Origin: Clostridium sp.
GTDB lineage: Bacteria; Bacillota; Clostridia; Clostridiales; Clostridiaceae
DNA length: 64,000 bases
Direction of reading: 5' to 3'
Assembly (NCBI RefSeq): GCF_026168755.1
Contig: NZ_JAPFDR010000010.1
Location: 17,487-81,486 of the forward strand
A program made the position numbers and the translations under genes. Numbering within the stretch: the stretch's first letter is position 1; every line of letters begins with the position of its first letter. Positions 3,842 through 35,728 of this stretch are shown one piece after another. Under the pieces are notes generated by a model that searched no databases, was not told the origin of the DNA, and saw only the letters and a program-made list of their open reading frames with translations.

Positions 3842-4121
3842 TTATACTAATTTTTGCTCAAATATATTATCTAAATTAACCTTTTTAATTCTATCATTAA
3901 TTTCCTCTTTATCAGTAGTATAAAGACCTAACTCTTGCATTCTCTTAAAATAGCTAGCACCAGCAAAAGTATATCTATCCTTTCTACCTTCCCTAGTTTC
4001 AACTTTTTCATTAGCAAAAGAAATTAAATCGCCTATTGCTATAGAAGAAGGTAAAATTAATAGTGGCATTCCCAGCATTAACCTTACAGCATTATGACCG
4101 GCTAAGCTACCTGTACATATA
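3842..4121 (-). CDS. Segment 3 (C-terminus) of the interrupted GidA/MnmG-related FAD oxidoreductase
   Basis: Reads (HTEA)ICTGSLAGHNAV..., the G-xx-EA-xxxG-xxAG-xNA motif of the GidA family; continues segment 2 in frame across the repeated core. The ORF-track N-terminus MQSGLKISQFSH is element DNA. Confidence 0.9.
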
Positions 4122-4133
4122 GCTTCAGTATGA
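4122..4133. repeat. Element B att core, left copy (GCTTCAGTATGA)
   Basis: Identical to 14329-14340; encodes H-T-E-A on the - strand. Confidence 0.92.
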
Positions 4134-4191
4134 TGACTAAACTGCGAAATTTTTAGTCCACTCTGCACATTTTATGACATCTCTAACATTT

Positions 4192-5790
4192 TTATATTTT
4201 ATTAGAGTATGTAATACTTATTGTATTACATTCACTACCCCAAATAATTTCTTGAAAAATATTCCTTAAAACTTTCTTTTTATCTTCATGATTCAAAAGA
4301 TCGAATGTGCTTTGAAAATTATTTATTTTATTTCTTATACTTTCAATATCTATTTCTTCATTTATGATAGTAGCATTTTTTTGTATTACACTATTTAATG
4401 ATTCTTCTAATTCTTTAATTTGAAAATTAATATCCCTAATTATTTGCTGATATTCTAAAATTATTTCTTTATCTAGATTAGAATCTAAAGTTTGTAATTG
4501 TAAAAACATATTTCCCTTTTTATTCTTTAGTTGTTGAATAGTATTGTTTATTTCATCTACTTCAGTATTATTATTTATTAAGCTATCATTTTTCAATATC
4601 TTATCCAACTCTTCTATTACTTTAGAAGAATCATATCCAACTACCTCTTCAACAATCCTTTTATCTACAATTGCTCCATTTAGATTTTTCATATTACAAA
4701 TTGTATTACTGCTATCTATTTTCATACTGCAAGCGTAATAATAAGGCCTTGTCCCATCTTTTAATTGACGAGCCTTAACTACATTCATTACAGATCCACA
4801 CTTACAACGTAATATACCACTTAAAAGTGCAACATTAGAATTACCTCTATTAGGTTTGTTATGTCTATTCTTAGATATTAACTCTTGTACCTTTATCCAA
4901 TTTTCAGCTGGTATTACACCATCATGCTTTGATGTTGCAGCAAGCTTTGGGTTATTTCTTGTTTTATCATTAGTCCTTTTGCAATAAGTTAAAATACCTT
5001 TTCCCTCTTCTTGTTTAGTTACAATGTAGCCTTGTTCTTCTAAAAACTCTGCAATATCCTCATTGCACATTGCATAAGTTGGATTAACAAGAACACTCAT
5101 AATTGAACTTTTATTAATATATCCACCCTTTTTGCCTCTAACCTTATTTTTAAGGAGATATTTATGAACCTTACTTACTGATTCAAATTCTAAATAAAGA
5201 TTAAACATCTGTATTACTTTATCTATTTCTTCCTCATTAATAACTAATGAACTATAATACCTAGTCTTACCATGTCCATCTATAAAAGATTCTCTTACAT
5301 GATTAAATCCCAAAGGAGCTTGACCTCCAAGCCACCTACCATCTCTAGCTAAAAGGTACATATTATCTGTAATACGTTGTATTAAATCATCTCTTTCAAA
5401 CTGAGATATACTAGCCAAAATAGTTAAAAACATAGTTCCCATTGGACTACTAGTATCTATTTTTTCTGTAACACTGTGTAATGCACATTTATATTCTTTA
5501 AAAATATCAATTGTCTCTAAAATATCTTTAACTTTTCTTCCAAGACGATTAAGTTGATAAACTATAACTGCATCTAACTCTTTTAGCTTAATCATATGAA
5601 TCATATTTTTAAATGCTGGTCTATCTGTATTTTTACCACTATAACCTTCATCTTCAAAGATTTTTATTTCTATATTTTTTTCTTCCATAAATATAAAGTT
5701 TATATAATCTTTACATCTATCGATCTGATTACCAATAGAGTCTCCCTTTCCTGTAAATTTTGACTTTCTCGAATATATAGCAATTTTCAT
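4192..5790 (-). CDS. Large serine recombinase (SpoIVCA/CisA-like), element B
   Basis: 532 aa; YSRKS catalytic motif, EDEGYSGKNTDRP, LNRLGR, recombinase domain GGQAPLGF, zinc ribbon CKC...YYYACS, coiled coil; intact. Confidence 0.95.
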   Translation of the reverse strand: MKIAIYSRKSKFTGKGDSIGNQIDRCKDYINFIFMEEKNIEIKIFEDEGYSGKNTDRPAFKNMIHMIKLKELDAVIVYQLNRLGRKVKDILETIDIFKEYKCALHSVTEKIDTSSPMGTMFLTILASISQFERDDLIQRITDNMYLLARDGRWLGGQAPLGFNHVRESFIDGHGKTRYYSSLVINEEEIDKVIQMFNLYLEFESVSKVHKYLLKNKVRGKKGGYINKSSIMSVLVNPTYAMCNEDIAEFLEEQGYIVTKQEEGKGILTYCKRTNDKTRNNPKLAATSKHDGVIPAENWIKVQELISKNRHNKPNRGNSNVALLSGILRCKCGSVMNVVKARQLKDGTRPYYYACSMKIDSSNTICNMKNLNGAIVDKRIVEEVVGYDSSKVIEELDKILKNDSLINNNTEVDEINNTIQQLKNKKGNMFLQLQTLDSNLDKEIILEYQQIIRDINFQIKELEESLNSVIQKNATIINEEIDIESIRNKINNFQSTFDLLNHEDKKKVLRNIFQEIIWGSECNTISITYSNKI

Positions 5791-5810
5791 TTTTGTATTA
5801 CTCCTTCTAA

Positions 5811-5966
5811 CTAATGTTTATATTCTTCGTCATTAAATTTTTCAATCAACAATCTACAAACTTCAACTCCATATACATTAATTAATGCTCTTGCTATTGA
5901 CTTATAGGCCTCTTCCCCTATTGATTCCTTATTTTCTTTAAGTATTATAATATTGCCTTTTTTCAA
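5811..5966 (-). CDS. 51-aa protein upstream of recombinase B; candidate recombination directionality factor
   Basis: Manual: GGAG RBS, TTG start, MKKGNIIILKENKESIGEEAYKSIARALINVYGVEVCRLLIEKFNDEEYKH*; stop lies 21 bp before the recombinase start. Confidence 0.6.
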   Translation of the reverse strand: MKKGNIIILKENKESIGEEAYKSIARALINVYGVEVCRLLIEKFNDEEYKH

Positions 5967-6002
5967 AACAATTTTTACTCCACAACTAAATTATTATTAT
6001 TA

Positions 6003-6031
6003 TATTGTATTTAAATTATTATTGAAATGTT
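6003..6031 (-). promoter_or_regulatory. Sigma-K-like promoter (one mismatch)
   Basis: AACA-N16-AATACAATA versus the consensus mACm-N16-CATAnnnTA; AT-rich context lowers specificity. Confidence 0.45.
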
Positions 6032-6040
6032 ACAACTTAA

Positions 6041-6086
6041 ATAAAAATGCAGAGTTAGATTTTTACTATCTTACTCTGCATTTTAT
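6041..6086 (-). terminator. Terminator after the Fic pseudogene
   Basis: aaaatgcagagt / actctgcatttt inverted repeat. Confidence 0.6.
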
Positions 6087-6120
6087 GGTTTTATAAATAT
6101 ATTATAATCTATTAACTTCT

Positions 6121-6828
6121 CTACTTCCAAAGATTAGAATACTCATTTTTAAAATCATCTAATGATAATATATATTTTTCTAAAGGTGAAAAGTCTAAAT
6201 CATTACATTCATTAAGTGATTTTCTATATAAATCTTCAGTATCCCATGATATAATTTTCACTTCTAAATTTTGTTCTAACATTTGTTTTAACATTATAAA
6301 CCTTCCTATTCTTCCATTACCATCTTGGAATGGGTGAATAAGTTCAAATCTATAATGAAATTAAGCTACATCTTTTAAAGTAATTTTATTTAATGAATAA
6401 TACCATTCTAAAAGTTCATCTAGTTTACTTTCAACTTCAAATGGTTGAGCTATCTTTGCATTTGTTCCTATAATCATATTGGGAATAACTTTATAAATTC
6501 CTGCATATCCTTTTGCATGCATACTAGTATTAAACATTAAACTTGCATGTATATTTTTAAGAAATTTATGATCTATCTTTTCTCCTAATGTTTCTATAAT
6601 TGTATCAAAAACATAACTTGAATTAACCGTTTCTTGTACATCATCTAAAGTATGCTTACCTTCAACAACATTTTTATCTAATAATAAAGCTAATGCTTCT
6701 GTTGTAAATGTACTTCCTGCAATTTTATTTGAATTATATAAAAAGTTATGTTTTAAAACAGCATATAATGAATTTTTAAAATCCTTAGTTTCATTTAACA
6801 CATCTATAAAAGTTTTTTCGTTAACCAT
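6121..6828 (-). pseudogene. Fic-domain protein with an in-frame nonsense codon
   Basis: Reads ...LKDVA*(TAA 6361-6363)FHYRFELIHPFQDGNGRIGR...NLWK*; the canonical Fic motif lies after the stop. Confidence 0.85.
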
Positions 6829-6914
6829 CCTATATCTTATACCCTTAACTTTCTTCTTATCCTTTATTATAACCTAAATAAATAAACTATTAAACATTGA
6901 AACTAATTCATGTA

Positions 6915-8474
6915 CTACATTTCTTGTATTATACAATCATGCTCTTTAGTTTTTGTGTTATAACAAATAGCAACTGCTAATATTTTTTTATCTGAATATT
7001 CCTTTTTAAACTTAGAAACATATTCTTTCTCTAAAATTTGATTTATCGCAACTTCAGGTAATGTATCTTTTTTAAGTTCAACTATAAAAGGTATATCATT
7101 CTTTCTTCTTGGATGAAATGTAAAATCTGCATAGCCCTTACCTGTTTTCTCTTCTCTTTCAACTCTATAGGTGTCTCTAGCGGAAAGGTATGCTAAAGTA
7201 AGAACACATGACAAACTATTTTCATCATTATATTGAAGTATCGGTATTTCAGAGTTATGAATATCATGCAGTATATTTTCAACAGTTTTTGTATCACCCT
7301 TAACTGTTGCTTTAAGCATTTTTTTAGAGTTTTCAACTATTTCTGAAACATATCCAAATGATTCATCTTTTAAGGCCTTTTGGAACTCTTTCATTAATTC
7401 TTTGTTAGGAATTTTTAAATATCCATTGTTATAAGATAAAAATCCTAGAATTATCATTGCTGAATATATTTCTTCCTTTGTTTTAGGTTCATCTTGACCT
7501 GCTCTAAACTCTTCATCTATATAGATATCAATTTCTTCTCTAGAAACCATTTCTATAACATCATCACGAATTTCTAAGGTATTGTACTTTAAATATTGTG
7601 TTACTTCATCCATTGCACCAGTATTTGTCCAATAACTTTCACAATTATTATTCATAAGTGCTTTAACAACAGACCTTGGATTATACACTTTAATTCCACT
7701 TGCTGTTGTATAGCCATTATACCAACTTTCGAGTTCTCCAAAATCCATTTTTTTATTTTTTAAACACAGCTCTTTAACTTCTTCTTCTGTAAAACCAAAG
7801 AACTCACCAAAGCTTCTATCTCTTAAAAATGTATATTCATCAAACATATTCAGTGCACTACCACTTGAATATTTCTTTATTGGAAGTACCCCTGTCATAT
7901 AGCAAAGAGCTACATAATTTTGATCTTTTAAAAGGTTTCTTAAAAACTCTAAAAAGTCATTTTGATGCTCAGCAAATAAATTATTACAAAAAATATAATC
8001 CCATTCATCAAAGATAAATATAAATTTCTTTTCTGATTTTTGTAAAATTCTTTTTAAGCTATCAGTTTCATTTAAATTATCATTATTAACTAATTCTATT
8101 ATTTCTCGCTTTAATTCTATAATTATGTTATTTATATAATCTTGATATGTTTGCATATTATCACATATCTCATTAAAAGAAATAGCTATTACATTGTATT
8201 TATTTAAATTTTCTTCGTAACTATCTGATTTACTAACTTTAAGGTTATCGAAGATTTCTTTGGCATCTACAGCATTTCCATAATAAGCTCCTAGCATATC
8301 TGCAACAGATGACTTTCCAAACCTTCTTGGTCTAGTAATACAAAGGTATTTGCTTTTTGTAGAAATCCTTTTATTAACCATGTCTATTATTTCTGATTTA
8401 TCAACAAAATACTCTTCTAAAAATAATTCTTTAAAATTTTCAAAGGGTCTAATGCTATTTAAATATATTGCCAC
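6915..8474 (-). CDS. AAA-ATPase-like plus PD-(D/E)XK nuclease (PDDEXK_9/DUF1703-type) protein, copy 1
   Basis: RPRRFGKS Walker A, IFDEWD Walker B, C-terminal REEKTGKGYADF...IVELK. Confidence 0.85.
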   Translation of the reverse strand: MAIYLNSIRPFENFKELFLEEYFVDKSEIIDMVNKRISTKSKYLCITRPRRFGKSSVADMLGAYYGNAVDAKEIFDNLKVSKSDSYEENLNKYNVIAISFNEICDNMQTYQDYINNIIIELKREIIELVNNDNLNETDSLKRILQKSEKKFIFIFDEWDYIFCNNLFAEHQNDFLEFLRNLLKDQNYVALCYMTGVLPIKKYSSGSALNMFDEYTFLRDRSFGEFFGFTEEEVKELCLKNKKMDFGELESWYNGYTTASGIKVYNPRSVVKALMNNNCESYWTNTGAMDEVTQYLKYNTLEIRDDVIEMVSREEIDIYIDEEFRAGQDEPKTKEEIYSAMIILGFLSYNNGYLKIPNKELMKEFQKALKDESFGYVSEIVENSKKMLKATVKGDTKTVENILHDIHNSEIPILQYNDENSLSCVLTLAYLSARDTYRVEREEKTGKGYADFTFHPRRKNDIPFIVELKKDTLPEVAINQILEKEYVSKFKKEYSDKKILAVAICYNTKTKEHDCIIQEM

Positions 8475-8583
8475 GACTTCACCACCTTATACATAGATTA
8501 TTAACGTAACTATTAATTAATTATAACATCTATTTTGATAACGAGGAATAGTTAGTAGTAGCTGTTTCTTGTGGTTGTTTAAC

Positions 8584-10257
8584 CTAAGACACTTTAATCA
8601 TACAATCTTTTTTATAAAAAGTAATTCCATACTTAACTATATTAGTATATCCTTCTTCTAATAATTCTGCATCATACTGTTTTTCTTCTATTTGATTTAA
8701 AGCCTCATCACATTTATCTGACATTTCTTTAAAGTTTTTTGCCACTTTAAGCTCTAAAATAACAGCTTCTCCTCGTCTGTTAGGATATTTAATAATAATA
8801 TCACTTCTACCTTTTCCTGTTTCTCTGTTTGATTTAATTATATATCTCTTAAGGTTAACTAAAGTTCCTAGTAAGAATCCATGATAAAAGTTTTCATATG
8901 CATCATAAAAACTTATACTTTCAGTTAAAAGCTCCACTAATTCATTCTCAAAAGTTAAAGTATCTCCACCTAACATAGCTTCATACATTTTAGATAAATC
9001 CTTAGATTTTATTCCTTCATCAAACCAATTTAAAATTGTATTTTTATAAATTAATCTTATTTCTTCATTTGGAATAGCTAAAGTAATAAGTATTTCATTA
9101 TCTTCATTCATCCTTACACTTACTTTCTTTAAGTATCCTGTAAAAAACAAGAAATTCCATAAATTATCCATAGATGAGTCAATATCTGCATATATTATAT
9201 CTTCATGAATAACCTTTTCTATTGTTTTACCTGCTACAAGTTCTTCAATTTGTGCCTTTGTATCATCATCTGCTTTTTCTATTAATGATTTTACAATACT
9301 ATTAGAGCTTGTATTGGCCCAATATGATATTGGTAGTGCATTAATAGTTCCTGTTAAATCATATATAAATTTATCAACACTCCATGGATTATAAACATTA
9401 CATTCACCAAAAAGATATCCATTGTACCATTTCTTTATAATATCTTCTTTATCTTCAAATCCATAATATTTAAGCATATCAATTACTTCATTTTCTGTAA
9501 AACCAAAATACTCATCATAGTGAGTGTTCAATATAGAAATAATATTTAAGTTATTTAATCCAGTAAAAATACTTTCTTTAGATATTCTCAAGCATCCTGT
9601 CATAATTGCAAACTCTAAATATTCATTTGTCTTTAATGCAGATTCAAAAAGTGATCTTAAAAAATCTATCATTTCATTGTAAAATCCTTTAAAATATGAG
9701 TTTTCTATTGGAACATCATATTCATCTATTAAAATAATAACCTTTTTATTATGGTACTTCTCAAGGCATCTTGATAAAAACTTTAATGCTGTTACCATAT
9801 TACCTTTATTATCTTTTTTATTAATAATATTTAAATAATCTTCTTTTTCATAATGAAGCTTTTCTGAATTTAATACGTAATCATGTCTTTTAAACTCTTC
9901 AATAATCTCATTTACAAGACAATCATATGCTAATTCGTAATTAGGTTGCTTGGCTGATTTTAAAGAAAGATTTATAACAGGATATTGTCCCATATGTGAT
10001 TTGTACTTTTCACCTTCATTCATTATTTTAAGTTTATTGAATAAATATGAATTATCATCCTTACCATTTTCAAAGAAGTATTGTATCATGCTAATATTTA
10101 AAGTCTTACCAAATCTTCTTGGCCTAGTAAATAAATTAACTTTTGCCTTACTATCTAGAATATCCTTTATTAGTAATGTTTTATCTACATAATAATAATT
10201 ATTTAATCTTATATCCTTAAAATTATCTACACCTATTGGTAATGGTTTTAAATTCAT
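8584..10257 (-). CDS. AAA-ATPase-like plus PD-(D/E)XK nuclease protein, copy 2
   Basis: LPIGVDNF, RPRRFGKT, LIDEYD, SNRETGKGRSDI...ILELK. Confidence 0.9.
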   Translation of the reverse strand: MNLKPLPIGVDNFKDIRLNNYYYVDKTLLIKDILDSKAKVNLFTRPRRFGKTLNISMIQYFFENGKDDNSYLFNKLKIMNEGEKYKSHMGQYPVINLSLKSAKQPNYELAYDCLVNEIIEEFKRHDYVLNSEKLHYEKEDYLNIINKKDNKGNMVTALKFLSRCLEKYHNKKVIILIDEYDVPIENSYFKGFYNEMIDFLRSLFESALKTNEYLEFAIMTGCLRISKESIFTGLNNLNIISILNTHYDEYFGFTENEVIDMLKYYGFEDKEDIIKKWYNGYLFGECNVYNPWSVDKFIYDLTGTINALPISYWANTSSNSIVKSLIEKADDDTKAQIEELVAGKTIEKVIHEDIIYADIDSSMDNLWNFLFFTGYLKKVSVRMNEDNEILITLAIPNEEIRLIYKNTILNWFDEGIKSKDLSKMYEAMLGGDTLTFENELVELLTESISFYDAYENFYHGFLLGTLVNLKRYIIKSNRETGKGRSDIIIKYPNRRGEAVILELKVAKNFKEMSDKCDEALNQIEEKQYDAELLEEGYTNIVKYGITFYKKDCMIKVS

Positions 10258-10334
10258 ATTTTCACTTCCTTTTATCTGTTTTTAAGCTATCTATTATTAT
10301 ATCCTAATTGTAAATTTTATTAAACCCACTATTT

Positions 10335-11384
10335 TTAATAAAGCATTGAGTATTTTTGCTTATATCTCAGCCATATATCTCCATTATCAACAAACTTTCC
10401 TATGGCATTATTCCTAGTTAAAAAGTATGGCAAGTGCCACTGAAAGTCATAAAAATAATCGCTATTATAAACATTGGCGTAATTATCAATTGCTTTTTTA
10501 ATTTCATCAAAGCTATATTTAGCCATAGCCTTATTTATACTGTCTATAATCTTAATATTTAAACTAACAACTTTACCTATTCTCTTACTATTCCAATGAT
10601 TAATTATATTTATATATATTTTATTATTTATATATATTTTATTATTTATATTATTATATATATTATTACGTGAAGTAGATACATTATCGTATCTACCTTG
10701 GTAATCACTAGATACATCAGTGTACCTACTTTCTTCATAACTAGATACATCAATGTACCTACCCTGTGTATTACCAGTTACATCAGCGTATCTATCTTCT
10801 TCATTTGTAGATACATCAGTGTATCCACTTTCTTCATAACTAGATACACCAGTGTAACTATTCTGTGCATTACTAGGTACATCATCGTATCTATCTTCTT
10901 CCATTATAGATACATCAGTATACCTACTTTCTTTATAACTAGGTACAGCAGTGTAACTATCCTGTACATTACTAGGCACATCAGCGTATCTACCTTCTTC
11001 CCTTGTAGATACATCAGTGTACCCACTTTCTTCATACCTAGATACATCAGTGTAACTATCCTGTGAATTACTAGGTACATCAGCGTATCTACTTTCTTCA
11101 GAATTATTAAATAATAAATAATCCTTTATTATCACATATATATTTTTCTTTCCATCTTTCTTTTCAATTCTTATATAATTCTTAGCTTGCAATGTTCTTA
11201 AAACACTATAAATAGACTTCTTATTCTTAATACAAAAATAATCTAATAAAGACTGTAATCCTACAGAAATAACATTACTATCTTCAAAATCAAATGCCTT
11301 TAATGCAATAAGCATATCTCTTTCTCTTCTGTTAATTTCTTTATCTAACATAAGCTTATTTAATATATCTAAATTATTCCCCAT
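10335..11384 (-). CDS. Putative replication initiator/replisome organiser with N-terminal HTH and internal tandem repeats
   Basis: N-terminal winged-HTH-like region (KSIYSVLRTLQAKNYI), 11-aa repeats, C-terminal IINHWN...EIKKAIDNY region resembling phage initiators. Confidence 0.6.
   Translation of the reverse strand: MGNNLDILNKLMLDKEINRRERDMLIALKAFDFEDSNVISVGLQSLLDYFCIKNKKSIYSVLRTLQAKNYIRIEKKDGKKNIYVIIKDYLLFNNSEESRYADVPSNSQDSYTDVSRYEESGYTDVSTREEGRYADVPSNVQDSYTAVPSYKESRYTDVSIMEEDRYDDVPSNAQNSYTGVSSYEESGYTDVSTNEEDRYADVTGNTQGRYIDVSSYEESRYTDVSSDYQGRYDNVSTSRNNIYNNINNKIYINNKIYINIINHWNSKRIGKVVSLNIKIIDSINKAMAKYSFDEIKKAIDNYANVYNSDYFYDFQWHLPYFLTRNNAIGKFVDNGDIWLRYKQKYSMLY
10676..11104. repeat. 13 tandem 33-bp units with 99-bp higher-order periodicity
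   Basis: Units start TAG(A/G)TACATCAG at 10676, 10709, 10742 ... 11072, counted by hand. Confidence 0.9.
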
Positions 11385-11552
11385 AACTTAACCCCACCTT
11401 TCTATACCACATAGAGATATAGTTTTTTTCTAACCTCATTTGGTATATTTCATAATTCATATCACCGATTCTATTTAATAATTAAATTTTACCATTGAAA
11501 TGTTAAGGAAATATAAATTTAAAAATTTTTTTTGTTAAATTCTTAAAATAAA

Positions 11553-11730
11553 GGCTCTGTTAGACTAAATTATTGATATACAACTCAAATCTATTATCTG
11601 TATTTACATATATTATTACAAACTTACCTCTTTTTCGAGAAGGTCTTGGCATTTTAAACCTACTCTTTTTATAATTCTCCTTGAAAGACTCAGAAACGAA
11701 TGTTTCGTCCATTTCTACTATACCCTAATT
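11553..11730 (-). mobile_element. IS1595-family remnant (terminal repeat plus transposase fragment)
   Basis: GGCTCTGTTAGAC end at 11553; degenerate GIVEMDETFVSESFK...MPRPSRKRGK, homologous to 14600-14838. Confidence 0.6.
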
Positions 11731-13622: not shown

Positions 13623-13640
13623 ATTAACCCCTCATTTAAT

Positions 13641-24973: not shown

Positions 24974-25100
24974 GGTAACTAGTACTATATTTGTATCATT
25001 AAGTTATTAATGTTATATACTCTATAGTAAATATTAATAAAAATAAATTATACAATATAATCCAAAAACTCATTTGCGATTTCACATCTAATTTTTATTA

Positions 25101-28100
25101 TTATAACTTAATAGTAAATCTCTTTGCTTCTCTACTAAAAAGCTTACATATCGCATCATACACAACTCTTTTAACTTTGACTTCTGATCCTATTATATAA
25201 GGAACTCTATAGCTTCCAGTATCAACATCATCAAAACAAACTTCCCACTTAGAGTACTTCACCACGGTCTCCCCTGTTCTATCTATGCCAATTATCCCTT
25301 CACCATTATCTGTAATCTTAATTCCGAGAACATCCAAAATTTCTCCCCTAATACTTAGATAATCATATGGTCTAAATGTTAAATAAATATCCTCATTAAT
25401 CTTAAGATTAGAAGCAACTAATAGTGAATTTCTTTTAAGATAATCTGGTTTAATAAACTCATTATTTTCATCATATAGCCTATACTCTTTTTTAAGTTTC
25501 ATTAAAGGAACAACATCCTCTTTATCTGTGAATACTACACCAGAAATTACTATTGTTGAATCTATATTCTCTATTAAATTATTCTTATACTTTTCTCTTT
25601 TATTATAACAACGTTCATAGTAAGCTAATGAAATCCATTCTTCAGAATACACATCAGTTATTGAGTCAGTAACTTCTTCAGGCATATTAATATCCAATGG
25701 ACGAGGAATAATTGAGTTGCAATTGGCAATTAAATACTCTATATCATCAATCAATATTTCATTCATTTTTTCTTCTATTTCACTTAAAAATGGTAATTCT
25801 ACAAATCCATTGAGGAATGCTTCTACTTCACGACTCATATGCTTCATTAATATATCATAAAAATAAACATTTGGTACAAGTACACTATATGATCTATCAT
25901 ATATTATATCTTGTAGATTTTCTCGTGTAGACTTATCGTTTATTTCACGAAAATAATTCTTAGCAATATTCCCAATATCAACACCGCTATCCTTTAGTAA
26001 AGCAACCCTATTATCTGTCTCAGTTAAGATTTCTATAAAATAATTAATACTGTCATCTCCACCATCATATGAGTGAACATACTTTTCGTAATTTCTTTCA
26101 TCTTTCAGCCCAGTAATGTTCCTAATCAAGTAGTTTACAATCCCATTATCAGTTGGATAAATACTTAGTAAATCATTAATTAAATTGTTTTTACGTAACT
26201 CTTCTTCAGTAAACCACTTTCTAATAAGCCACAATAAAATAATTAGTGAGTAGTCAATGAATCTATCCTTCTTTTCAATATAACGCTTGAAAGGTTTTAT
26301 GAAACATATACGATACTCTGGCTGCTCTAACATTTTGTTAAGCGAAGATATAATCCATCTATAACGATTTGCTTCACCATATTTTAAACGAGTAAGTAAT
26401 AGAAACATTGCTTTTTCTATAGAAGAGAACTCTTTAGACTTTTCAACTATTTCCTTATAATTATAATCATATTGTCCTGATAGTCTAAAATTAATTATCT
26501 CAAACAATGACTCCCAATAATGAAGAATTAATTCACCATCATATCCAACCGCTGTTAACGCATTTATTATTTTATCACCTACTGCCAAATTATAGTCAAC
26601 CCGATAAAGATTATTATAAAAATATTCAAAAAAATACTCCTCTGCAACTTCTCTATTATATTCTACTGCTTTAATATAATATCCTGTTTCAGTTAACCTC
26701 TGATACCACCCATCTTTATGATTCAAAAACATCGCTATGTAAATATACGCCATAACTTCTGAATTTAAATCTAAAGCATCAATAACTTTTAGTATTCTTT
26801 CTCTACTTTCATCATCGCTCCTTCTATCATATGTGTGCTTTATTAGGTTGTTGATAAACATTTTTGAGTCATCACTCAACTCACTAATTGACTGCAAGTA
26901 TATATACAATCCTTGAATATCACTTTCATTTATTCCAAAATCAACAATATACTCAAGTATTTCCTCAAAAGACATTACATCAAAACTTAAACGACTCACA
27001 TGTTTATCATAACTAAACTTCTTTCCTCTACCTATATCATATGTTCTATTTGAACTACAATTTAATATAATTTCAGAATTAAATTCTACGTTCAGTTGCT
27101 CACACAATCCTTTTATTTTCTCATAATCATCTTCATAGATTCCTTTCGGATATCTATTTATCAATTCTCTCATAGAAACTCTAGCTAATTCCTTTTGAGA
27201 ATTATTACTTAAAACTCGTATGTTGTTTAAATAACTACTAATAGTGCTAGGACTAATTTCATTAGGTCTCGTTTTAAAAAGAGAATTTTCTATAATAGGA
27301 TCTACTTCACTATTCATACTCTCTAAAAGATTATCTAAACTTTCTTCTAATGCCCAATAATTTGATGAATCCAATAGCTCATAACTCAGATATGTCATAG
27401 CAATATCTCTGTTAGTTCTAGCCAAAACCTCGAACCACTCTTTTGGATAAGTTTGTGTACTTCTGCCATCAGTATGATATACAACGGCATCGGCTAATGG
27501 CTTTAGTCTTAATATATTCTGAATACCAGTTTCCTCATCAATTTTATAAATACTCTCGACACTATCTATCAGTCGACTTAGTGTACGATCCTTTCTAAAT
27601 GAATAAGACAATAGATACTCTACACCTCTTCGAAATTCAACTTTTGCTTTGTCTAACCGACCACCCTTTGAAAGGATAATTGCATGTTTAAAACTATAAT
27701 CAGCCAAATATGAATAAAATCTTCGTTTATCCTCATCGCCTATTTTTTCTTCAAATATTTCTGTTAAAACTGTACAATTTATATCATTTGCTATTACTAA
27801 GAATAACTCGAAAAGTTTGTACGTAGGTAGTGGACCGCAAGTAGCCCCCATTAGCGTAGACATAGTTTTACTTGACATCTCAGCAATCAAACCAAGTATT
27901 GTACGCCATGTAGATTCAGTTGATACTAGTTCAAGTGGTGATACTATTGATTCAAATATAATTGTCTTATAATTGTACAAATCACAAGTACGCGGTTTAC
28001 CCTTAAAGCATTCCATGTCCTTTGTTAACCATAAATATGCTTCTATTAGTTTTGACTCATCAATAGACTTATTTTCTTTTGCTTCAACAATTACTTTACT

Positions 28101-30869
28101 CACTTTAAATACATATATTAACCAATTATAATACCAATTTCTATTTTCAGCACACTTAATAAAATCATTTAATTTATTTGAATGGTTTGTAATAATCCAT
28201 TCAATGTTACTAATATAGTAATTTAGCGCAATTAAAGTGTCATTAGAGTATGAATCTGAGTCCAATAATATCTCAAGAGCAGTATCAAGATATTGTTCAT
28301 CAATTATATACTTACCCTCGAATACATCTATACTTTCTACCCAATGTTCTTGTTCCTCAAGTTGGTTTACCAGTGCTTTTAATTCTTCAATTAATCCTCT
28401 CCTTGAATATTCAGTTATTATCACCGTCCTCTTATCATATGCGTCTTTAACTGCAACTTTTTCAATCTTATCAATCATATTTCGGCCAGTATCTAAACAT
28501 GCACAAATAAAATATCTATACTCTTCTAATTGCTCATCATGACTCTTTCGCACTACTTGATTAGATTTCTTTGATTCTATGAGTAACCTTATATACTCGT
28601 CCCATTCAGGAATTACATTATTTTCAGAGCAGAGATAACAGACTTTTAATCCTTCACTGCAACTTAGTGCATTTCGTCCTTCGTAAACTAAAATATTTTC
28701 AAGTTTTTCGAACCCATTAATAAGACCTAATCCAAGATAATAATACTGAGAAACCTCATCAAATGAATATTCTAGACTGTAAATCATATTACTCAATTCA
28801 GTACATATGATTACAGCGCCATAATTTTTAGCTTTACAAGATGCCTTCATTAAAATCTCAAAATTGCTTTTTATAAAATTAATGTTATTACCATAAAAAA
28901 CGCTGTCAACAACAAATTCCTTATTGCAATATTCTAAAATTTCTTCATAGCGTTTAGCTTCAAAAAGAAGTCCAAGTAAATTTAGATACGACTTTCTATC
29001 TTCATAGAATCCCTTTTTTTTCAACCAGTCTATCAAGTATGAATAAATGGCTTTATCTACACTAACTTCATTTTCTTCTAGTAATTCAAGAACATATCTT
29101 CTAAAACTTTCATGATAAATTTTATAACATCCAGAGCAACTACTATAAGATAATATACTTCTAATAGCCTCTAAACTTTTAGAAACATATACACCTAAAG
29201 AAGTAATCTCCTTAAGTTCAGATTCTGTTAATGGAAATGGAGAACCTGCCAATATTTGTGGCACCTTTTGACTTTCAGAGAGTTTTGTCATTAAAAATGA
29301 ATAGTAATTTTCCAAATTGATATTATAAGCTGGGAATCCTTCAATCAATTCTCTTGTTATCATAACATGAGTATATTTAGATAATTCGTTTACTAAATAC
29401 GTTAAATATAATGGATTCCCTTAACTTTTTTCAATCAATAAGTCTGATAACATACAGTGAAAATCCAGCTCAACGTCTGTTAAGCTATTATTTGTAATAA
29501 ATTCTTTTACTTCACCAATGTCCCAAGGTTTCACTGAAAACTCCTTAAAGTTATGATTGCACAAATTAATAACCTCAGTAATTGGCTGTGAGGCTAAAAT
29601 AACTTTTACGTTGTCAGGAAACATCAGCCGTGATATTACTTCCACAATTTCAGTCTCAATTTGTTTCATTGTTTCTTTATGAAAACTATATATTCTACCA
29701 ATATGATCTAATCCATCTACAATTAATACTACTTCTTCTTTTATATTATTAATTAAAACTTGCAATTCATCAAAATCCACCCCATATTTCGAAATCTTAT
29801 ATGACTCTAAGTGTGGAAATGCCTCAATAATGGCATTTATTAAATTCGCTAAGAATACATTTATAGTTATTCTTTCTTTTTCATATAGATCATCTATTCC
29901 CGTATAACAATAATGCTGAATAACTTTAATTCCTTGTTCATCGAGAAAGCTTATAAAGTTTTGAATGAACCAAGACTTTCCTGAACCTGGTTCACCAAGT
30001 AGACATACTTTATTGTTTGTAAATACAAAATCCTTAAATTCATGATATCTTGTTGAATTTAGTACATTAATAGATCTATCAATCTTAAAACTCTGCTCAA
30101 TGTTTCCGTAACTTTTCTTCAGACCTAAGTCAAAAATCAATTTATTTAGTTCAATAACTTCACCTCTTGCACGTAGTCCTTTAATGATATATATCAAGTG
30201 CATGGAAACATCAACTACTGATTTCTTATCATTTGGAAATTTCCCAATACCAAAGAGCCTTAGGCTATTTATAACCAAATTCTCTAAGTCACCAGGATTA
30301 GTAAAATCTGTACTTGATTTTGGAAGATTCACTTCAATAGTTAAATCATTAATAAATTTCTGAAATTCATCTCTATTAATATCCGTGGACTTCCCTCTTA
30401 ATCGTCTCCATGATGAAATAGGAATTCCATCTGAAGGCCATATACTTTCAAGATTAATTTTTAACACTTTAACATCATTACTTTTATACAAATTAGTTAC
30501 ATCTTGCTCTACTAAAAAATCAATGTCTTGAGAATCCATAAGCAACTCCCATGCCAAACAAATCCTGATATCAATATTCTTGTCTTTCGGTAATTCTTGC
30601 CATGATCTAAATAATGTATCTAGTGCTAAATCGTATTTTTCAGAAGACAAATCTGCTTTTTCAAATATTTTATTATCACTATACTTAATCTGTTTCTTCA
30701 TTATTGAATCACTTGTAATAATAGTAATATCATCAAACTTATCATTTTCAGATTCTTTTTGATCAATCTTGAAGATAGCACTGTCATCAGTTAATAACAT
30801 ATTTATAATATGATATGCCGTAAATAAATCTTGGTATTCATATCCTTTATGAGCATCTAATAAACTCAT
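25101..30869 (-). pseudogene. Avs (AVAST)-like nuclease-STAND ATPase-helical sensor, 1922 codons with one in-frame stop
   Basis: N-terminal GYEYQD...DD...KQIK nuclease, Walker A GEPGSGKS, Walker B IVDGLDH; TAA at 29421-29423 in EKS*GNPLYL, then in frame into the 1420-aa ORF. Confidence 0.8.
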
Positions 30870-31138
30870 AATCTAAACCTCCTTCAAGTTTCTATATTTC
30901 TAACTATATAGCATAATCTCAATTTATTTATGATTTGGTTATCTTTTCATTATTCTAAATAATTAAGTTAAATAAAAATTTCTATTTCACTCATAATTTT
31001 AGTAATTTATTTACTATATATCAACATAATTTACCTAACAATTCCAAAAAACCATTTATATTTTATGAGCTCTACATAAAATTCATTATATAAATTAATA
31101 CATATATCATAAAGATAATAGATTTATAATTATATATA

Positions 31139-31888
31139 CTACTCTAATCTTCTCATCTTTATATAAACATAAATACCACCATCAACATCATTACACACCA
31201 CATCATTGCCAGTATAAATAAACCCTGGATAAAGCTTCTCAAAGACTTCTCTTTCCCCTTGGTTTTGTGATAGCTCATATAATTTTTTATTTGAATACTT
31301 ATAATCATTAATCTTTGGCAATGGTATAATTATATTCTTAGATTGACTCCATCTTTTCTTTCCTCTAGGATCCTTTGAAAGATAATTTGCTAATTCTTCA
31401 AAACCTAGTTCATTAGCTTGCATTCTATTTGCATTAGCTGTGCCTTTTCCCCATAGTTCTTCTGCCTTATCTCTATCCATTCCAGATATTATAATGTGAT
31501 GGTGGATTCTTGTTTTTGTTCTTTTATCATCTGTAGCTTCTCTATATTCTAAAACTGCTATATATTTTAATTCATCAAGTCCATTCCTCTTCCTAAAGTT
31601 TTTAATTCTCCTAATATAATTATTTCTATCACGAATAGCAGTCTCTTCACTATTTGGAAGATTAGCTGCATCATAACTAAGGCTAACTATTAAATCCTTA
31701 TTATCAAAGTTAGCATGAATTCTTCTTCTTAAATTCTTTCTTGCATTTTTATCATTTAGGTTCTTTTGTTCCTTTCTACTCTCCTTCTTTTTCTTTGATC
31801 TACTTTTCTTTTGTTCATATTTAGAAATAGGATATATTTCTACTTCTAAATATTTACCACATAGAAATCTCTTCTCTCTAATAGCCAT
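31139..31888 (-). CDS. HUH rolling-circle replication initiator-like protein
   Basis: RIHHHIII (HUH) and LANYLSK (catalytic Tyr); GGGG RBS; intact. Confidence 0.75.
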   Translation of the reverse strand: MAIREKRFLCGKYLEVEIYPISKYEQKKSRSKKKKESRKEQKNLNDKNARKNLRRRIHANFDNKDLIVSLSYDAANLPNSEETAIRDRNNYIRRIKNFRKRNGLDELKYIAVLEYREATDDKRTKTRIHHHIIISGMDRDKAEELWGKGTANANRMQANELGFEELANYLSKDPRGKKRWSQSKNIIIPLPKINDYKYSNKKLYELSQNQGEREVFEKLYPGFIYTGNDVVCNDVDGGIYVYIKMRRLE

Positions 31889-32057
31889 ACCCTTTACCCC
31901 TATAACTTTATTTCTTAAATTTAAATAACGTTCTAAAGATAATACCTATTACAAGCTCTCAAAGTCCTTAAATTAAGTACCTTTAAAAAACAGTTTATTT
32001 ACAGAGAAAACTCCCTATTGTATAATAAAAATAGAGAGTTTTATTAAACTTTTCATC

Positions 32058-32100
32058 AAGACACATTGAGATTAATCTTGCCGGATTGCCAATGTGTCTT
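32058..32100. repeat. 11-bp perfect inverted repeat upstream of the HUH Rep
   Basis: AAGACACATTG-N21-CAATGTGTCTT. Confidence 0.7.
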
Positions 32101-32489
32101 TTGCTGGTAAAATATTATTTTCATAGCTTAATCTCCAAAATCTTAAGTGTACCAGACCATTTAATATATCTAAAATTCTTGTTCCCTTTTTTAAAAACTT
32201 GTATTTTACTAAATTCTTCTTCTGTAACATATGTGCTTTTTACACATTACCTTCACTCTAGTTCTAAAACTAATTTCAAAGTATTAATATCTCTTAATTC
32301 AACCATGTAACCTCTTCACCTTTAAGAACACTTAACTCAACCCTAAGCCAAATCAGCATACTTCTTAAAACCTCTATTTCAAACTTTATATTTTCAATGG
32401 AACTCTTCATTAAATAATACCTGATTTTAGCTAAGTCTCTATTAAGTCTAAGCTGTGCAATTTTCCCATACCTCTATATTAATTTCCAT

Positions 32490-32798
32490 ATTTTATCCCT
32501 CCACATTTAATAATTTAATTTCATTTTCTAGCACCAATGGAACTTTATAATTAATAATTATTTCTTTTACCATATCTATAGAAATTGCATTATCTATTAC
32601 TGTAGTCACTGGATTCTTTAAATTATTGGTTGCTCTTTTTTAAGCCACCCTTATAAAATCAATTTCTTCCTCAAATCCATACTCAACCATTCTTCGGAAC
32701 CAATCCTTATACTTAGTTCCTATTTCTAAAAACTCATCTAATTCTCTACCACTTACTAATTGTCTACCTTCTCTTTCTATTATCTTAATTAATTCCAT
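32490..32798 (-). pseudogene. AntA/AntB phage antirepressor remnant
   Basis: MELIKIIEREGRQLVSGRELDEFLEIGTKYKDWFRRMVEYGFEEEIDFIRVA*KRATNNLKNP; TAA at 32640-32642. Confidence 0.75.
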
Positions 32799-32918
32799 TA
32801 CTTAATCACTCCATTTCTAATTATCTCCTTAGCTAATACTTATTAAATTCACCATTTAACAAATTCTTTATTATGTTAATCCTTATTGGTTAAGGCTAAT
32901 TAGCCTATTTTTCATAAG

Positions 32919-33074
32919 TTAATCAAAGTACTTACAATCATTTTCTTCAAGATAATCAACAATTAAATCTATTTCCTCAGACGTAAATTTTTGTATTGCA
33001 ATATCTGTTAATATATCTATTAACTTATTTTCTAAAATACTCATATCTTCTGGATAAATACATGTAATCGTCAC
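32919..33074 (-). CDS. 51-aa acidic protein divergent from recombinase A; candidate recombination directionality factor
   Basis: Manual: GGGGG RBS, GTG start, MTITCIYPEDMSILENKLIDILTDIAIQKFTSEEIDLIVDYLEENDCKYFD*. Confidence 0.65.
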   Translation of the reverse strand: MTITCIYPEDMSILENKLIDILTDIAIQKFTSEEIDLIVDYLEENDCKYFD

Positions 33075-33101
33075 TATCTCGCCCCCTATAAATTAATAAT
33101 C

Positions 33102-33130
33102 TATACTATGCTTGTACACTTCTTTTGGTT
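33102..33130 (-). promoter_or_regulatory. Sigma-K-type promoter for the 51-aa ORF
   Basis: AACC-N16-CATAGTATA, a full match to mACm-N16-CATAnnnTA, 28 bp before the GTG. Confidence 0.65.
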
Positions 33131-33257
33131 ACACTTAGTAATACTTTATACACTAAAGAAAAGATTGAGATTGTATTTATCTAAAGAACTTATTAGGATA
33201 AATCTAAAATATATTTATTTTAAAATAATGTTGCATATATTAAACTGAGGTGATTAG

Positions 33258-34895
33258 ATGAAGATTGCTATTTACTCAAGAAAGAGCAAATACACAGGAA
33301 AAGGTGATTCCATAGGTAACCAAATTCAAATGTGTAAGGACTACATTGAGACTAATTATAGAAATAAAGACCATGAATATATTATTTATGAAGACGAAGG
33401 ATTTTCTGGTGGAAATATCAACAGGCCAAAGTTCCAGAAGCTTCTTAATGATATTAAAAAAGAAAAATTTGATATTCTAATATGCTATAGACTTGATAGA
33501 ATTAGTAGAAATGTATCTGACTTCTCCACTACCTTAGATGAAATTCAAAGCTATGGAGTTGATTTTATAAGTGTTAAAGAACAATTTGATACAACTACTC
33601 CAATGGGAAGAGCTATGATATACATAGCATCAGTATTTGCCCAACTTGAACGTGAAACCATTGCTGAACGCGTAAGAGATAATATGATTGAACTAGCCAA
33701 GTCAGGAAAATGGTCTGGAGGTAGAACCCCTCTTGGCTTTGATAGTGAAGGTTCATCTTATATTGATGAAGAAGGAAATGAAAGAAGATTAGTTAAACTT
33801 GTGAAAAATGATGAGGAGCTAAAACTAGTTAATCTTATTTATGATACTTATCTAAGAGAAGGTTCATTGCATAAAACAGAAACTTACTTTGCTTCTCACA
33901 ACATTAAATCAAATAGAAATATCCTTCTTGAAAAAACATCATTAAAGGTAATCTTAAATAATCCTGTTTATGCAATAAGCTCTCCAGAACTTAAGAGGTG
34001 GCTTGAGGATGATGGATGGAATGTATATGGTGAACCTGATGGCAAACATAGCTATCTTAGTTATAATAAGACAAAGCACGTAACTAGAAATGGGAAATCA
34101 ATGAAAATACCAAACGATAAAGAAAATTGGATAGCTGCAATAAGTAATTGCCCTGGTATAATTGAAGCAGATAAATGGATTCAAGTACAAGAACAATTTA
34201 AAGGCAATAGAGGTTCATTCCCTAAAAAAGCAAGAACCCACGATGCAAAACTTGTTGGAAAAATATATTGTGCCCACTGTAATAACTACATGCAGGTGAT
34301 TCATGGAAATATTAAAAAAGATACAGGAAAAAGACAACACTACTACTCCTGCTCATTAAAAAAGAAATCCAAAAATGAATTATGCAAAAACAAAAATGTT
34401 AAGATAGATGCTGTAGAAGATTTATTACTCCAAGAGCTAGAAAGACTAGATAAAAATAAAAAAAGCTATATTCAAAGCCTTAAAAAGAAAAATAACTCAG
34501 TTAAGAAAAATAAAGATGTAAAACAAAAGCAGATATCAATACAAAAAGAAATTGATGCCAAACAAAAAATACTTAATAATTTAATAGATAAGTTAGCAAT
34601 TGCTGATGACCTAGATGATATAATAATACAAAGAATAAGATCCACTAAAAATGAAATGCAAGAGTTACAGAAACAACTAGATGAAATATCAAAAGAGATA
34701 GAAGATTCAAACTACAAGAAATTAGACCTAGACTTTATAAAAAGCTTACTAGAAAAGTGTGCTGATATAAGAGAACTAGATTCTAATGAACAAAGACTCC
34801 TAATAGGTGTTTTAGTAGATAAGATTCTATGGGATGGTAATACTCAAGATGTAACAGTATATTTCATTGGAAGTGGAGACGTAAAAAAAAAGTAG
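33258..34895 (+). CDS. Large serine recombinase (SpoIVCA/CisA-like), element A
   Basis: 545 aa; YSRKS, EDEGFSGGNINRP, RLDRISR, GGRTPLGF, zinc ribbon CAHC...YYSCS; intact with GAGGTG RBS. Confidence 0.95.
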   Translation: MKIAIYSRKSKYTGKGDSIGNQIQMCKDYIETNYRNKDHEYIIYEDEGFSGGNINRPKFQKLLNDIKKEKFDILICYRLDRISRNVSDFSTTLDEIQSYGVDFISVKEQFDTTTPMGRAMIYIASVFAQLERETIAERVRDNMIELAKSGKWSGGRTPLGFDSEGSSYIDEEGNERRLVKLVKNDEELKLVNLIYDTYLREGSLHKTETYFASHNIKSNRNILLEKTSLKVILNNPVYAISSPELKRWLEDDGWNVYGEPDGKHSYLSYNKTKHVTRNGKSMKIPNDKENWIAAISNCPGIIEADKWIQVQEQFKGNRGSFPKKARTHDAKLVGKIYCAHCNNYMQVIHGNIKKDTGKRQHYYSCSLKKKSKNELCKNKNVKIDAVEDLLLQELERLDKNKKSYIQSLKKKNNSVKKNKDVKQKQISIQKEIDAKQKILNNLIDKLAIADDLDDIIIQRIRSTKNEMQELQKQLDEISKEIEDSNYKKLDLDFIKSLLEKCADIRELDSNEQRLLIGVLVDKILWDGNTQDVTVYFIGSGDVKKK

Positions 34896-34943
34896 ACTCT
34901 CTACTTCCTGATTTATTCCAATTGTTGCAAATTCAACCACACA

Positions 34944-35728
34944 GCATGACCAGTATCAAGTAAAACTATATTTTCTGCAAACTCCTTAAGTGCATATTGT
35001 TGACATACCTTTGTACTAAGCTTACCATAATTTACATCTTCATCAGGAACCTTTAAAACAACTACCCCTGTTTTATCTAGTTGCTCTCTAATTTCATTAG
35101 ATAAACTTTCCTTTGCAAGCTTACAAGATCCTGAAAATGCTCCAAGTGCATCTCCATCTCTTTCACCTTGAATATCTGAAACTCCACATCTTGCACTTAT
35201 ACTTAATCTTGGTCCAAAAGCAGGGCAACGCAATATACACATAGAACATCCATTACCATATCTTAAACAATTCCCCATAGGTCCTGTTGAACCAGTTGTT
35301 TCAATAAACACATCACCTTTAACGTAAGTGTCATCACTTAATAAAATTCCCCTTATCTTATTGTTTTCAACATCAACATCTTTAACACGACTCTCTAAAT
35401 GAAGATGTATTCCTAATGATTTCAAATAATCTCTTACTACACCTTCAATAATATTAACATCATAAAGAGTTGCATGTTTATGACCAGGGAATTCTATATT
35501 AGCATGTCTTGCACATTTATCTGTTATTTCAATTAAGTCTCCTGCCCCTAAAGCTATAAGCTCTTCTGATGCAGTATAACGTCCATTATTTCTCATTATA
35601 CCACCAACATTACCAAGTCCAAGTAAAAGATCTGTTTTTTCATAGATATGGACATCTGCTCCAGCTTTCTTCGCTGTTATTGCGGCAGCACAGCCTGACC
35701 AACCTCCCCCAACAACTACTACCTTCAT
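34944..35728 (-). CDS. Segment 1 (N-terminus) of the interrupted GidA/MnmG-related FAD oxidoreductase
   Basis: VVVGGGWSGCAAA FAD-binding motif; native sequence ends at DTGHA (codon 262); the tail VWLNLQQLE* to 34913 is element DNA. Confidence 0.92.

Follow-up and report, generated by a model that had tools for sequence, protein, structure and literature searches.

Excision of a mobile element by its own large serine recombinase (LSR) restores a mother-cell gene in the skin elements of C. difficile, which employs the LSR CD1231 together with the factor CD1234 (PMC5025042), and of B. subtilis, which employs SpoIVCA. In the C. difficile element, the LSR is constitutive, and the cell-type specificity comes from the small factor, which is under the control of a mother-cell sigma factor (PMC5025042). 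A mother-cell gene is likewise rebuilt after the excision of SPbeta from spsM in B. subtilis by an LSR and a factor made from a sporulation promoter (SprA/SprB; PMC4191935, PMC5499854). The yin element in yabG of C. botulinum V73 (PMC10747680) shares with the locus described here the genus Clostridium, the position of the LSR at the end of the element, and a short direct-repeat core; its LSR lies next to the 5' gene fragment, and its excision restores a late mother-cell gene. The locus in question lies in a stretch of 64,000 nucleotides from a Clostridium sp. (contig NZ_JAPFDR010000010.1 of assembly GCF_026168755.1, positions 17,487 to 81,486 of the forward strand), which is called the window in the following and was considered at its full length. 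It consists of a flavoprotein gene divided into three segments by two LSR-bounded islands, elements A and B, and rather probably represents a skin-like system in duplicate, from which both islands would be removed by a sporulation-timed double excision.

All three segments of the gene are encoded on the minus strand. Segment 1 (34944..35728, codons 1-262, Pfam GIDA/FAD_oxidored) ends with the 5-nt core CATGC, which is repeated at site 1 (codon 262), while segment 2 is an "exon" of 213 nt (14329..14541, codons 262-333) whose last 12 nt form the core TCATACTGAAGC repeated at site 2 (codon 333), and segment 3 (3842..4121) contributes codons 333-425 and the stop codon in the joined frame. The first-pass annotation of this DNA had proposed that the three pieces join to a protein of 425 aa, and this is indeed the case: after reverse complementation, 34944-35728 (785 nt), 14329-14541 (213 nt), and 3842-4121 (280 nt) add up to 1278 nt with 425 codons plus stop and without any internal stop codon, in which LLDTGHA is followed by KLMTTYY at the first joint and LFVGHTEA by ICTGSLAGHNA at the second. 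Clostridium has a large number of intact orthologues of 425-426 aa, which reach up to 95-97% identity with the rejoined protein and continue over both joints with the same residues (LLDTGHAKLMTTYYPLEKL and LFVGHTEAICTGSLAGHNA). Since these orthologues are collinear with the product across both joints, the joints must be regarded as exact and not as due to chance. Note that rejoining in frame is the automatic outcome of any precise site-specific insertion and therefore does not by itself prove a programmed rearrangement. The host, a gut Clostridium close to C. celatum with a genome of 3.29 Mb and 28% G+C, contains the flavoprotein gene only in the form of these three pieces and has no other copy. 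The rejoined gene codes for an FAD protein of the GidA/TrmFO fold with a C-x6-C-x2-C-x3-C motif (Pfam GIDA, 2e-42), which is predicted to be an uncharacterised GidA-like Fe-S flavoprotein.

Each of the two islands carries its own LSR of full three-domain architecture at one end and lies inside the coding sequence between copies of a short core, and exact joining at these cores restores the frame, as is typical of intervening elements. Element A (14542..34943, 20,402 bp) is inserted at site 1, and its recombinase LSR-A (545 aa; 33258..34895, plus strand; Pfam Resolvase, Recombinase, and Zn_ribbon_recom) is convergent with segment 1 and ends 49 nt from the joint. Element B (4122..14328, 10,207 bp) is inserted at site 2 and carries LSR-B (532 aa; 4192..5790, minus strand; with the same set of three domains) immediately before segment 3, at a distance of 71 nt from the joint. 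That both recombinases are intact, as claimed from the first inspection, is borne out by their full length, their three domains, and the invariant R8-K9-S10 motif with the catalytic Ser10, which is present in either protein. The same applies to the claim of two separate elements which must both leave to restore the frame, because the cores are different and LSR-A and LSR-B share only 33% identity. The attP sites reconstructed for both positions show imperfect dyad symmetry around the core, as expected of LSR sites.

A view on the relatives of the two recombinases shows which genes are used as targets by this type of enzyme. An alignment of LSR-A-type proteins served to scan a single genome of each species, the 80 best loci (37-93% identity) were retained, and the target gene was identified from the sequence that follows the stop codon of the LSR. 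A piece of the flavoprotein gene adjoins 20 of these 80 LSRs, and about 20 further ones adjoin a sigK gene split at residues ~113-116, which is the skin position. The other targets include yabG (three loci; TIGR02855, 8e-86), yunB (two), a gene for a Mn-catalase/CotJC-like protein (one), and the gene of the PyrK-like partner of the flavoprotein (one), as well as genes for an SsuA-family binding protein (five of 80) and a PilB/GspE-type ATPase (two of 80). The relatives of LSR-B show a similar spectrum, with 39 of 79 adjoining sigK, six the flavoprotein gene, and one each the partner gene and yabG. In a maximum likelihood tree, the flavoprotein-targeting LSRs are grouped according to the site used into at least four clades, of which two belong to site 2 and one each to sites 1 and 3, and these are interleaved with the clades targeting yabG, sigK, and yunB. 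LSR-A is located in the site-1 clade, adjoining the clades that target yabG, SsuA, and PilB, while LSR-B groups with the enzymes of G004, G008, and L050b and is sister to the PyrK-targeting LSRs. As judged from these relationships to LSRs of species genomes that split sigK, yabG, yunB, and the CotJC-like gene, both LSRs belong to the skin-type recombinase family, and the operon is used by this family in the same manner. As to the SsuA and PilB targets, split genes are found at L147, L150, L154, L205, and L211 for the SsuA family and at L141 and L165 for the PilB/GspE type, and the SsuA-family orthologue of the host (contig C97:94537) is preceded by a strict sigma-K consensus promoter; these genes may be unrecognised mother-cell genes.

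The split condition of the flavoprotein gene is widespread, being found in about 10 of the 38 related species carrying it, and an LSR adjoins every sequenced junction. The insertions in these species are located at codon ~262 (G006, G018, and G040), ~333 (G004, G008, and G035), or ~87 (G017 and G024). The landing pad thus comprises three sites in the flavoprotein gene, in addition to at least one in the partner gene. Uninterrupted and singly interrupted alleles, whose occurrence in relatives had been raised by the first-pass annotation, were both found, and the gene is thus not split by necessity; an intact allele is present in laboratory strains such as C. celatum DSM 1785, whereas C. sporogenes LCP25S3_F4 and C. 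paraputrificum NCTC 11833 carry related insertions. The same annotation knew of no described tandem case in this gene family, but the tripartite layout proved to be common: metagenome and isolate assemblies show the same order of segment 1, an island, a 69-aa segment 2, a second island, and segment 3 in the lineage of the window itself (L013/L023 and L014/L024), in a second lineage, whose truncated protein P0167 has entries in 197 blocks of the protein collection, and in L029, where the cargo is different. The stranded piece of segment 2 was recovered at L023, L024, L029, and L047-L050, and at site 2 the inserted elements can be of quite another kind, one of them having a phage-type helix-turn-helix (HTH)/M78 module. 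Moreover, an independent double split is present in C. magnum DSM 2767 (L161), where the gene is 69% identical, a 71-codon exon equivalent to segment 2 and reading KLMT...GHTEA lies between two stretches of foreign DNA, and the LSR at site 2 shares only 44% identity with LSR-A. In several strains of the same species and of the sister lineage (L013-L016, L020, L296, and L298), a third island splits the gene of the PyrK-like partner at codon ~15; the corresponding site in the window (~36670) is empty. All combinations of empty and occupied sites are found in the C. celatum-like lineage. In a separate case, the loci L045 (G007 contig C75) and L046 of a close relative carry an intact gene, followed over 14 kb downstream by a defence-like island without any recombinase, in which genes for MrfA Zn-binding/helicase, UvrD-like, and Hsp70-like proteins are interspersed with fossil 3' fragments of the flavoprotein gene (residues 245-425 and 366-425, ~80% identity); these fragments look like remnants of earlier insertions or replacements.

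Both elements code for a small protein of 51 aa close to the recombinase. The open reading frame (ORF) of element A, orfA (32919..33074, minus strand), codes for an acidic protein (pI 4.05), and that of element B, orfB (5811..5966, minus strand), is located 21 nt upstream of LSR-B and conserved beside its relatives. The two proteins are homologous (7e-27 with a hidden Markov model, HMM), and an HMM built from them detects a relative of 50-60 aa in every LSR element inserted in the flavoprotein gene. The orfA family is not represented in Pfam and lacks a source name, and a word-based search for homologues returned only near-identical unnamed proteins. The orfA and orfB products are candidate recombination directionality factors, and their transcription is probably driven by sigma-K. 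The start of orfA is preceded at a distance of 27 nt by a sigma-K consensus promoter, GTAACC-N16-CATAGTATA (33102..33132, minus strand), which is one of only two strict matches to the consensus in the window. The strict motif AC-N16/17-CATAnnnTA occurs 18-27 nt before the ribosome-binding site (RBS; GGGGG or GGAGGG) in four site-1 elements, namely element A and those of G006, G018, and L051; the LSRs of these elements share only 43-62% identity, and their flanks are otherwise unalignable. The small ORF of L051 shows a perfect GTAACA-N15-CATATTTTA. Within the set of 80 loci, the strict motif is present at most 90 nt upstream of eight of 27 such ORFs, compared to 19 of 2831 other small ORFs (Fisher 4e-11), and the enrichment persists against small ORFs with an RBS as controls (8/27 versus 6/201, 3e-5). 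The elements at site 3 and that of G035 carry CATATAAT or CATATACT boxes, which constitute weaker evidence, and orfB is preceded by a sigma-K-like motif with an exchange of C to A, GTAACA-N16-AATACAATA (6003..6033, minus strand). Genome-wide, ORFs with an RBS and the strict motif mostly belong to genes for Cys-rich or low-complexity coat-like proteins, a CwlC-like amidase, and CotJC-like proteins, and because of these coat-like genes the sigma-K consensus of Bacillus and C. difficile (PMC3789822) seems to be valid in the host. The sigK gene of the host is intact and uninterrupted, and spoIIID is present.

The flavoprotein gene is the second gene of an operon and coupled translationally, via an ATGA overlap, to the gene for a PyrK-like FAD/NAD(P)-binding Fe-S protein of 330 aa (35725..36717, minus strand; NCBIfam NF004470/PRK05802, 5e-141). 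No true orthologue of this partner family NF004470 is present in the named control genomes, and an annotation from a model organism is accordingly not available. Upstream of the operon, a sigma-K-like motif with A for C in the -10 region, GTAACA-N15-AATAATCTA (36749..36778, minus strand), belongs to the same class as the motif before orfB; 37 of 59 species, C. perfringens among them, have kept it in front of the operon in the form tGTAACAaaa-N-AAATAnnnTA. Four of the 15 genome-wide matches of this motif class fall within the 32-kb locus, although the class was defined after its sites in the locus had been seen. The GTAACA part resembles the SpoIIID box KRTAACARK of C. difficile (PMC5025042). 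An assignment as a canonical sigma-K promoter is not supported, as CATA occurs in none of the 59 species, all of which have AATA. A perfect sigma-K match at 35788-35814 (minus strand), 60 nt ahead of the start of the flavoprotein gene, was rejected as a promoter and has probably arisen by chance within coding sequence, because it lies inside the conserved T-A-R-F-S-G-H-R-V stretch of the partner and its last positions vary synonymously between species.

The gene order in C. perfringens is scpB, ytfJ, ytfI, dacB, the PyrK-like gene, the flavoprotein gene, iscR, and iscS. In strain SM101, dacB is CPR_1770, and the adjacent CPR_1769 is annotated as "oxidoreductase" (PMC4433262). The latter belongs to Cluster 1, which comprises 106 genes induced by more than 5 log2 units during sporulation of C. 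perfringens (PMC4433262), and sigK, cotJB/JC, yabG, and sleC are members of the same cluster (PMC4433262). As judged from this synteny, the operon should be the counterpart of CPR_1769/1768 beside dacB, and the host operon appears to be sporulation-induced by analogy to its C. perfringens counterpart. The flavoprotein may have a role in spore formation.

The evolution of the locus was followed by comparing the window with the L047 lineage, both of which are doubly split. The dS values of host stretches are 0.184, 0.164, and 0.159, and those of LSR-A and its neighbour gene are 0.167 and 0.197, respectively; since the value of LSR-A matches that of the host, element A has most simply been in place since the split of the lineages. 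Some cargo genes show a dS of only 0.02-0.07 and have evidently been exchanged between lineages. Segment 1 differs by 25 synonymous and seven non-synonymous changes (dN/dS 0.07, p = 3e-11 versus neutrality). A raised dN/dS in segment 3, named in the first-pass annotation as the mark of a dead gene, is not observed, as the comparison with L029 yields 12 synonymous and six non-synonymous changes (p = 3e-5). In addition, no stop codons are seen in the split alleles, while ~11 would be expected under neutrality. According to these substitution patterns, the split alleles are under purifying selection. An intact allele, L297, differs from that of L047 at 11 of 785 nt, all synonymous, while the window differs from L047 at 32 positions. 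The nesting of L297 between two split lineages is best explained by a precise excision in the germ line.

Taken together, these data suggest the following course of events. Two unrelated non-phage islands, located 213 nt apart and each equipped with its own LSR and att sites, reside in a two-gene redox operon, which would be switched on during sporulation. Neither island would move during vegetative growth or in the forespore, and the gene would remain silent there. Late in the mother cell, the sigma-K-type promoters would lead to the synthesis of the ~51-aa factors, and these would turn LSR-A and LSR-B toward excision. Two circles would then leave, and the 425-aa frame would be restored and expressed only after both are gone (three in some strains), with excision presumably limited to the mother cell. 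As the spore would retain the split gene, the islands and the anti-phage genes they carry would be passed on without a burden on the host. The comparison with skin was at first drawn as an analogy only, and it has now gained indirect support from the LSR family, the promoter, the operon, and the selection acting on the segments. The more general proposal, that a skin-type LSR family uses a late-sporulation flavoenzyme operon as a multi-site landing pad requiring two to three orthogonal sigma-K-timed excisions, stands at about even chances.

Several observations weigh against a sporulation-timed double excision. The orfB gene and its homologues in G004 and G008 carry the weaker promoter variant AATAnnnTA, and the motif upstream of the host operon may equally be read as a sigma-A-like GTAACA-N17-TAnnnT. 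The link to CPR_1769 is based on the synteny in another C. perfringens genome rather than on the SM101 gene sequence. Sigma-K also acts early in sporulation of Clostridium sensu stricto (PMC10747680), which would blur a strict confinement to the mother cell. Intact and split alleles coexist in one species-level lineage, and since intact copies circulate, the purifying selection could partly act via these copies and recombination. A frameshift at residue ~232 of P0135 (NCBI, 3.5-Mb contig) in a complete sister-lineage genome indicates that the gene is dispensable at least in culture, unless it is a sequencing error. Finally, the exact 425-aa protein is absent from a collection of 15 billion proteins, which contains the truncated form in 27 blocks; this absence is uninformative, because a rare mother-cell product would be concerned.

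Some of these points would also fit a gene that is simply dead after precise and fairly recent insertions of plain mobile elements into a dispensable hotspot, with nothing programmed about them. Any precise LSR insertion leaves in-frame pieces, the target has multiple sites and is split in about 10 of 38 species, intact, singly split, doubly split, and frameshifted alleles occur side by side, and the strain-variable cargo, of which several genes have decayed, is typical of mobile defence islands. However, LSR-A and its neighbour have diverged like the host genes (dS ~0.17), so that the insertion is not recent, and a dN/dS of 0.07 in segment 1 and the lack of stop codons where ~11 are expected do not agree with a dead gene. 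Nor does such an explanation account for the conservation of a sigma-K consensus ahead of the small ORF in elements that have diverged deeply or for the nearest LSR relatives residing in sigK, yabG, yunB, and a CotJC-like gene, and we therefore regard it as unlikely. The excision may alternatively be timed to sporulation but serve only the elements, whose circles, one of them with a rolling-circle Rep, would be amplified in the mother cell or set free at its lysis and spread in this way; restoration of the gene would then be incidental, and the protein would play no part in spore formation. The Rep gene of element A, the fact that the sigma-K promoter belongs to the element and not to the host, the ambiguous class of the host promoter, and the loss of the gene in P0135 without a block of growth would all be consistent with this. 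Yet a minimal element A without Rep exists, purifying selection acts on the gene segments of split lineages, the C. perfringens counterpart operon appears to be strongly sporulation-induced, and at least four LSR clades converge on the operon as they do on sigK. Such a convergence is expected if disrupting the gene costs nothing for the sole reason that only the mother cell requires it (for the argument, see PMC6957869), which renders a purely element-serving excision improbable.

A stochastic or stress-dependent excision in vegetative cells would turn the locus into a reversible ON/OFF switch, resembling active lysogeny or phase variation. While yin circles are present at all time points in C. 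botulinum (PMC10747680) and empty and occupied sites are mixed within one lineage, neither LSR is accompanied by an SOS-type or immunity module within the window, the candidate directionality factor is preceded by a promoter that fits sigma-K and has been conserved in this form, and a look-up in the protein collection found no assembled rejoined allele identical to the window's lineage. Vegetative switching thus seems very improbable, and the timed double excision during sporulation is retained as the preferred interpretation.

With regard to the class of the elements, no capsid, tail, terminase, or lysis genes or remnants of them were found in either element by Pfam searches of ORFs of at least 80 aa, which argues against prophages, and the same searches revealed no relaxase, coupling protein, or type IV secretion genes, which argues against integrative and conjugative elements. 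The only content of a conjugation or replication type is a rolling-circle Rep (REP_ORF2-G2P) in element A (31139..31888, minus strand; Pfam PF23343, 4.7e-9), which is carried by some variants of this element. No DNA match was obtained for element A among 50,697 phage records or for element B among plasmid records. The integrase of phage CP51 is 55% identical to LSR-A, but only over the N-terminal two thirds of the latter, and in a comparison of the int-proximal region of this phage with the C. perfringens gene, no common core was found. The two elements are rather defence islands, being integrase-bounded and carrying mostly anti-phage cargo that varies between strains. In relatives, the cargo at the same site consists of type I restriction-modification, SMODS, or kinase-helicase genes or a complete type I-B CRISPR-Cas system. 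The latter is found at L051-L053, where a site-1 LSR element carries the complete set of cas1, cas2, cas4, cas8b, cas7, cas5, and cas3, and thus, as judged from its gene content, is a CRISPR-Cas locus on a skin-like element. The third island in the partner gene contains an HTH gene and an AAA-ATPase/PDDEXK gene at its near end, and its cargo consists of type I restriction-modification, SMODS, KAP NTPase, or kinase-helicase with PLD genes.

The minimal element A of relatives comprises 6.6 kb with the LSR, orfA, and genes for an AAA-ATPase/PDDEXK protein, a methylase, and an NmeDI-like endonuclease. In the window, this backbone is represented by an AAA-ATPase_like/PDDEXK_9 gene (17331..19031, minus strand), an N6/N4 DNA methylase gene (16089..16970, minus strand), and a frameshifted gene for the NmeDI-like endonuclease (15015..16042, minus strand; 187 + 133 aa). 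L047 has an undamaged endonuclease of 339 aa in its minimal element A, and the intact methylase at 16089-16970 looks like an orphan after the loss of the nuclease. The further cargo of element A includes a Fic gene and an Avs-like STAND defence gene (25101..30869, minus strand), which combines an N-terminus of Cap4-nuclease/NACHT type (Pfam NACHT and Cap4_nuclease) with a C-terminal part of 1420 aa; the gene forms a continuous frame of 1922 codons with a single in-frame stop at codon 483. An insertion sequence (IS) with a DDE_Tnp_1 transposase of 351 aa (19335..20390, plus strand) is also present within element A, and in the sister strain L013 a different IS of the IS66 family is located between LSR-A and orfA, by which the promoter is parted from its usual context. 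Element B codes for a MazG-like protein, an SLFN/DUF2075 helicase, and a truncated Fic-like PDC-S04 protein, together with two AAA-ATPase_like/PDDEXK_9 proteins (6915-8474 and 8584-10257, both minus strand) and a protein of 349 aa without Pfam match (10335-11384, minus strand). PADLOC yielded no matches for either the AAA-ATPase_like/PDDEXK_9 genes or the 1420-aa protein. The three AAA-ATPase_like/PDDEXK_9 genes of the window are paralogous, one of them belonging to the conserved minimal backbone near the LSR and orfA, and a further copy is carried by the third element, upstream of the partner gene; these genes may constitute a mobility or maintenance module rather than cargo.

If the double excision takes place as proposed, the locus would be the first example, among endospore formers, of a combinatorial rearrangement of DNA during development and extend the skin paradigm to tandem orthogonal elements in one gene, i.e., a natural two- or three-input DNA AND gate. 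The small ORFs would then define a new family of directionality factors, and the PyrK-like/GidA-like pair would acquire a sporulation function, by which an Fe-S flavoenzyme operon conserved across Clostridium would join the late sporulation functions, with the split and intact genes serving as natural knock-out and knock-in alleles. Genes needed only in the mother cell would offer cost-free parking sites for restriction-modification, Avs-like, and CRISPR-Cas islands, and spore development would be linked to the inheritance and exchange of anti-phage immunity in gut clostridia. The locus would also provide several LSRs with candidate directionality factors and defined attB/attP sites, reversible pairs of which are sought for genome engineering.

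Compared to the known systems, the similarity to yin extends to a candidate factor, since yin codes for an acidic protein of 53 aa with a putative SigK promoter (PMC10747680), which may be compared with the 51-aa orfA product, and yabG-adjoining LSRs are among the nearest relatives of LSR-A (47-48% identity). However, yin is prophage-like, single, and present in one strain only, whereas the islands described here are of non-phage type, carry defence cargo, occur in twos or threes per operon, and are widespread. The skin elements differ in targeting a regulator instead of a redox enzyme and in the promoter of the factor, which depends on sigma-E and SpoIIID rather than being of the sigma-K type; moreover, they split sigK, which is uninterrupted here, while two elements lie in tandem in the flavoprotein gene. 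SPbeta differs in being an active phage, for which a second route of excision is driven by the SOS response, whereas phage genes are lacking in the present elements. The gin element in gerE of B. cereus ATCC 10987 (PMC5595907) resembles them in being a non-prophage with restriction-modification cargo, in possessing an LSR (GirC) and a tiny factor (GirX, 42 aa) expressed during sporulation, and in its variable content around a conserved recombination unit, but is a single element with three recombinase genes in another genus and target gene.

Several elements within one gene or operon are already known from heterocyst-forming cyanobacteria (nifD, fdxN, and hupL; PMC4874684, PMC11249958), with nifBHDK of Calothrix NIES-4101 being divided into 13 parts. 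There, all elements are removed in a terminally differentiated cell before the product is made, which amounts to the same AND logic of multiple excisions, although the phylum, the cell type, and largely the recombinases are different and there is no tie to sigma-K or spores. A literature search in a limited library found no report of the flavoprotein gene as attachment site or of a doubly split sporulation gene in Firmicutes, which is weak evidence, and as far as this search goes, the tandem or triple arrangement appears to be new for an endospore former. The features by which the locus is set apart from the described systems are thus the target operon, the breadth of its use across Clostridium, the defence cargo reaching up to CRISPR-Cas, and the small-ORF family with its promoter.

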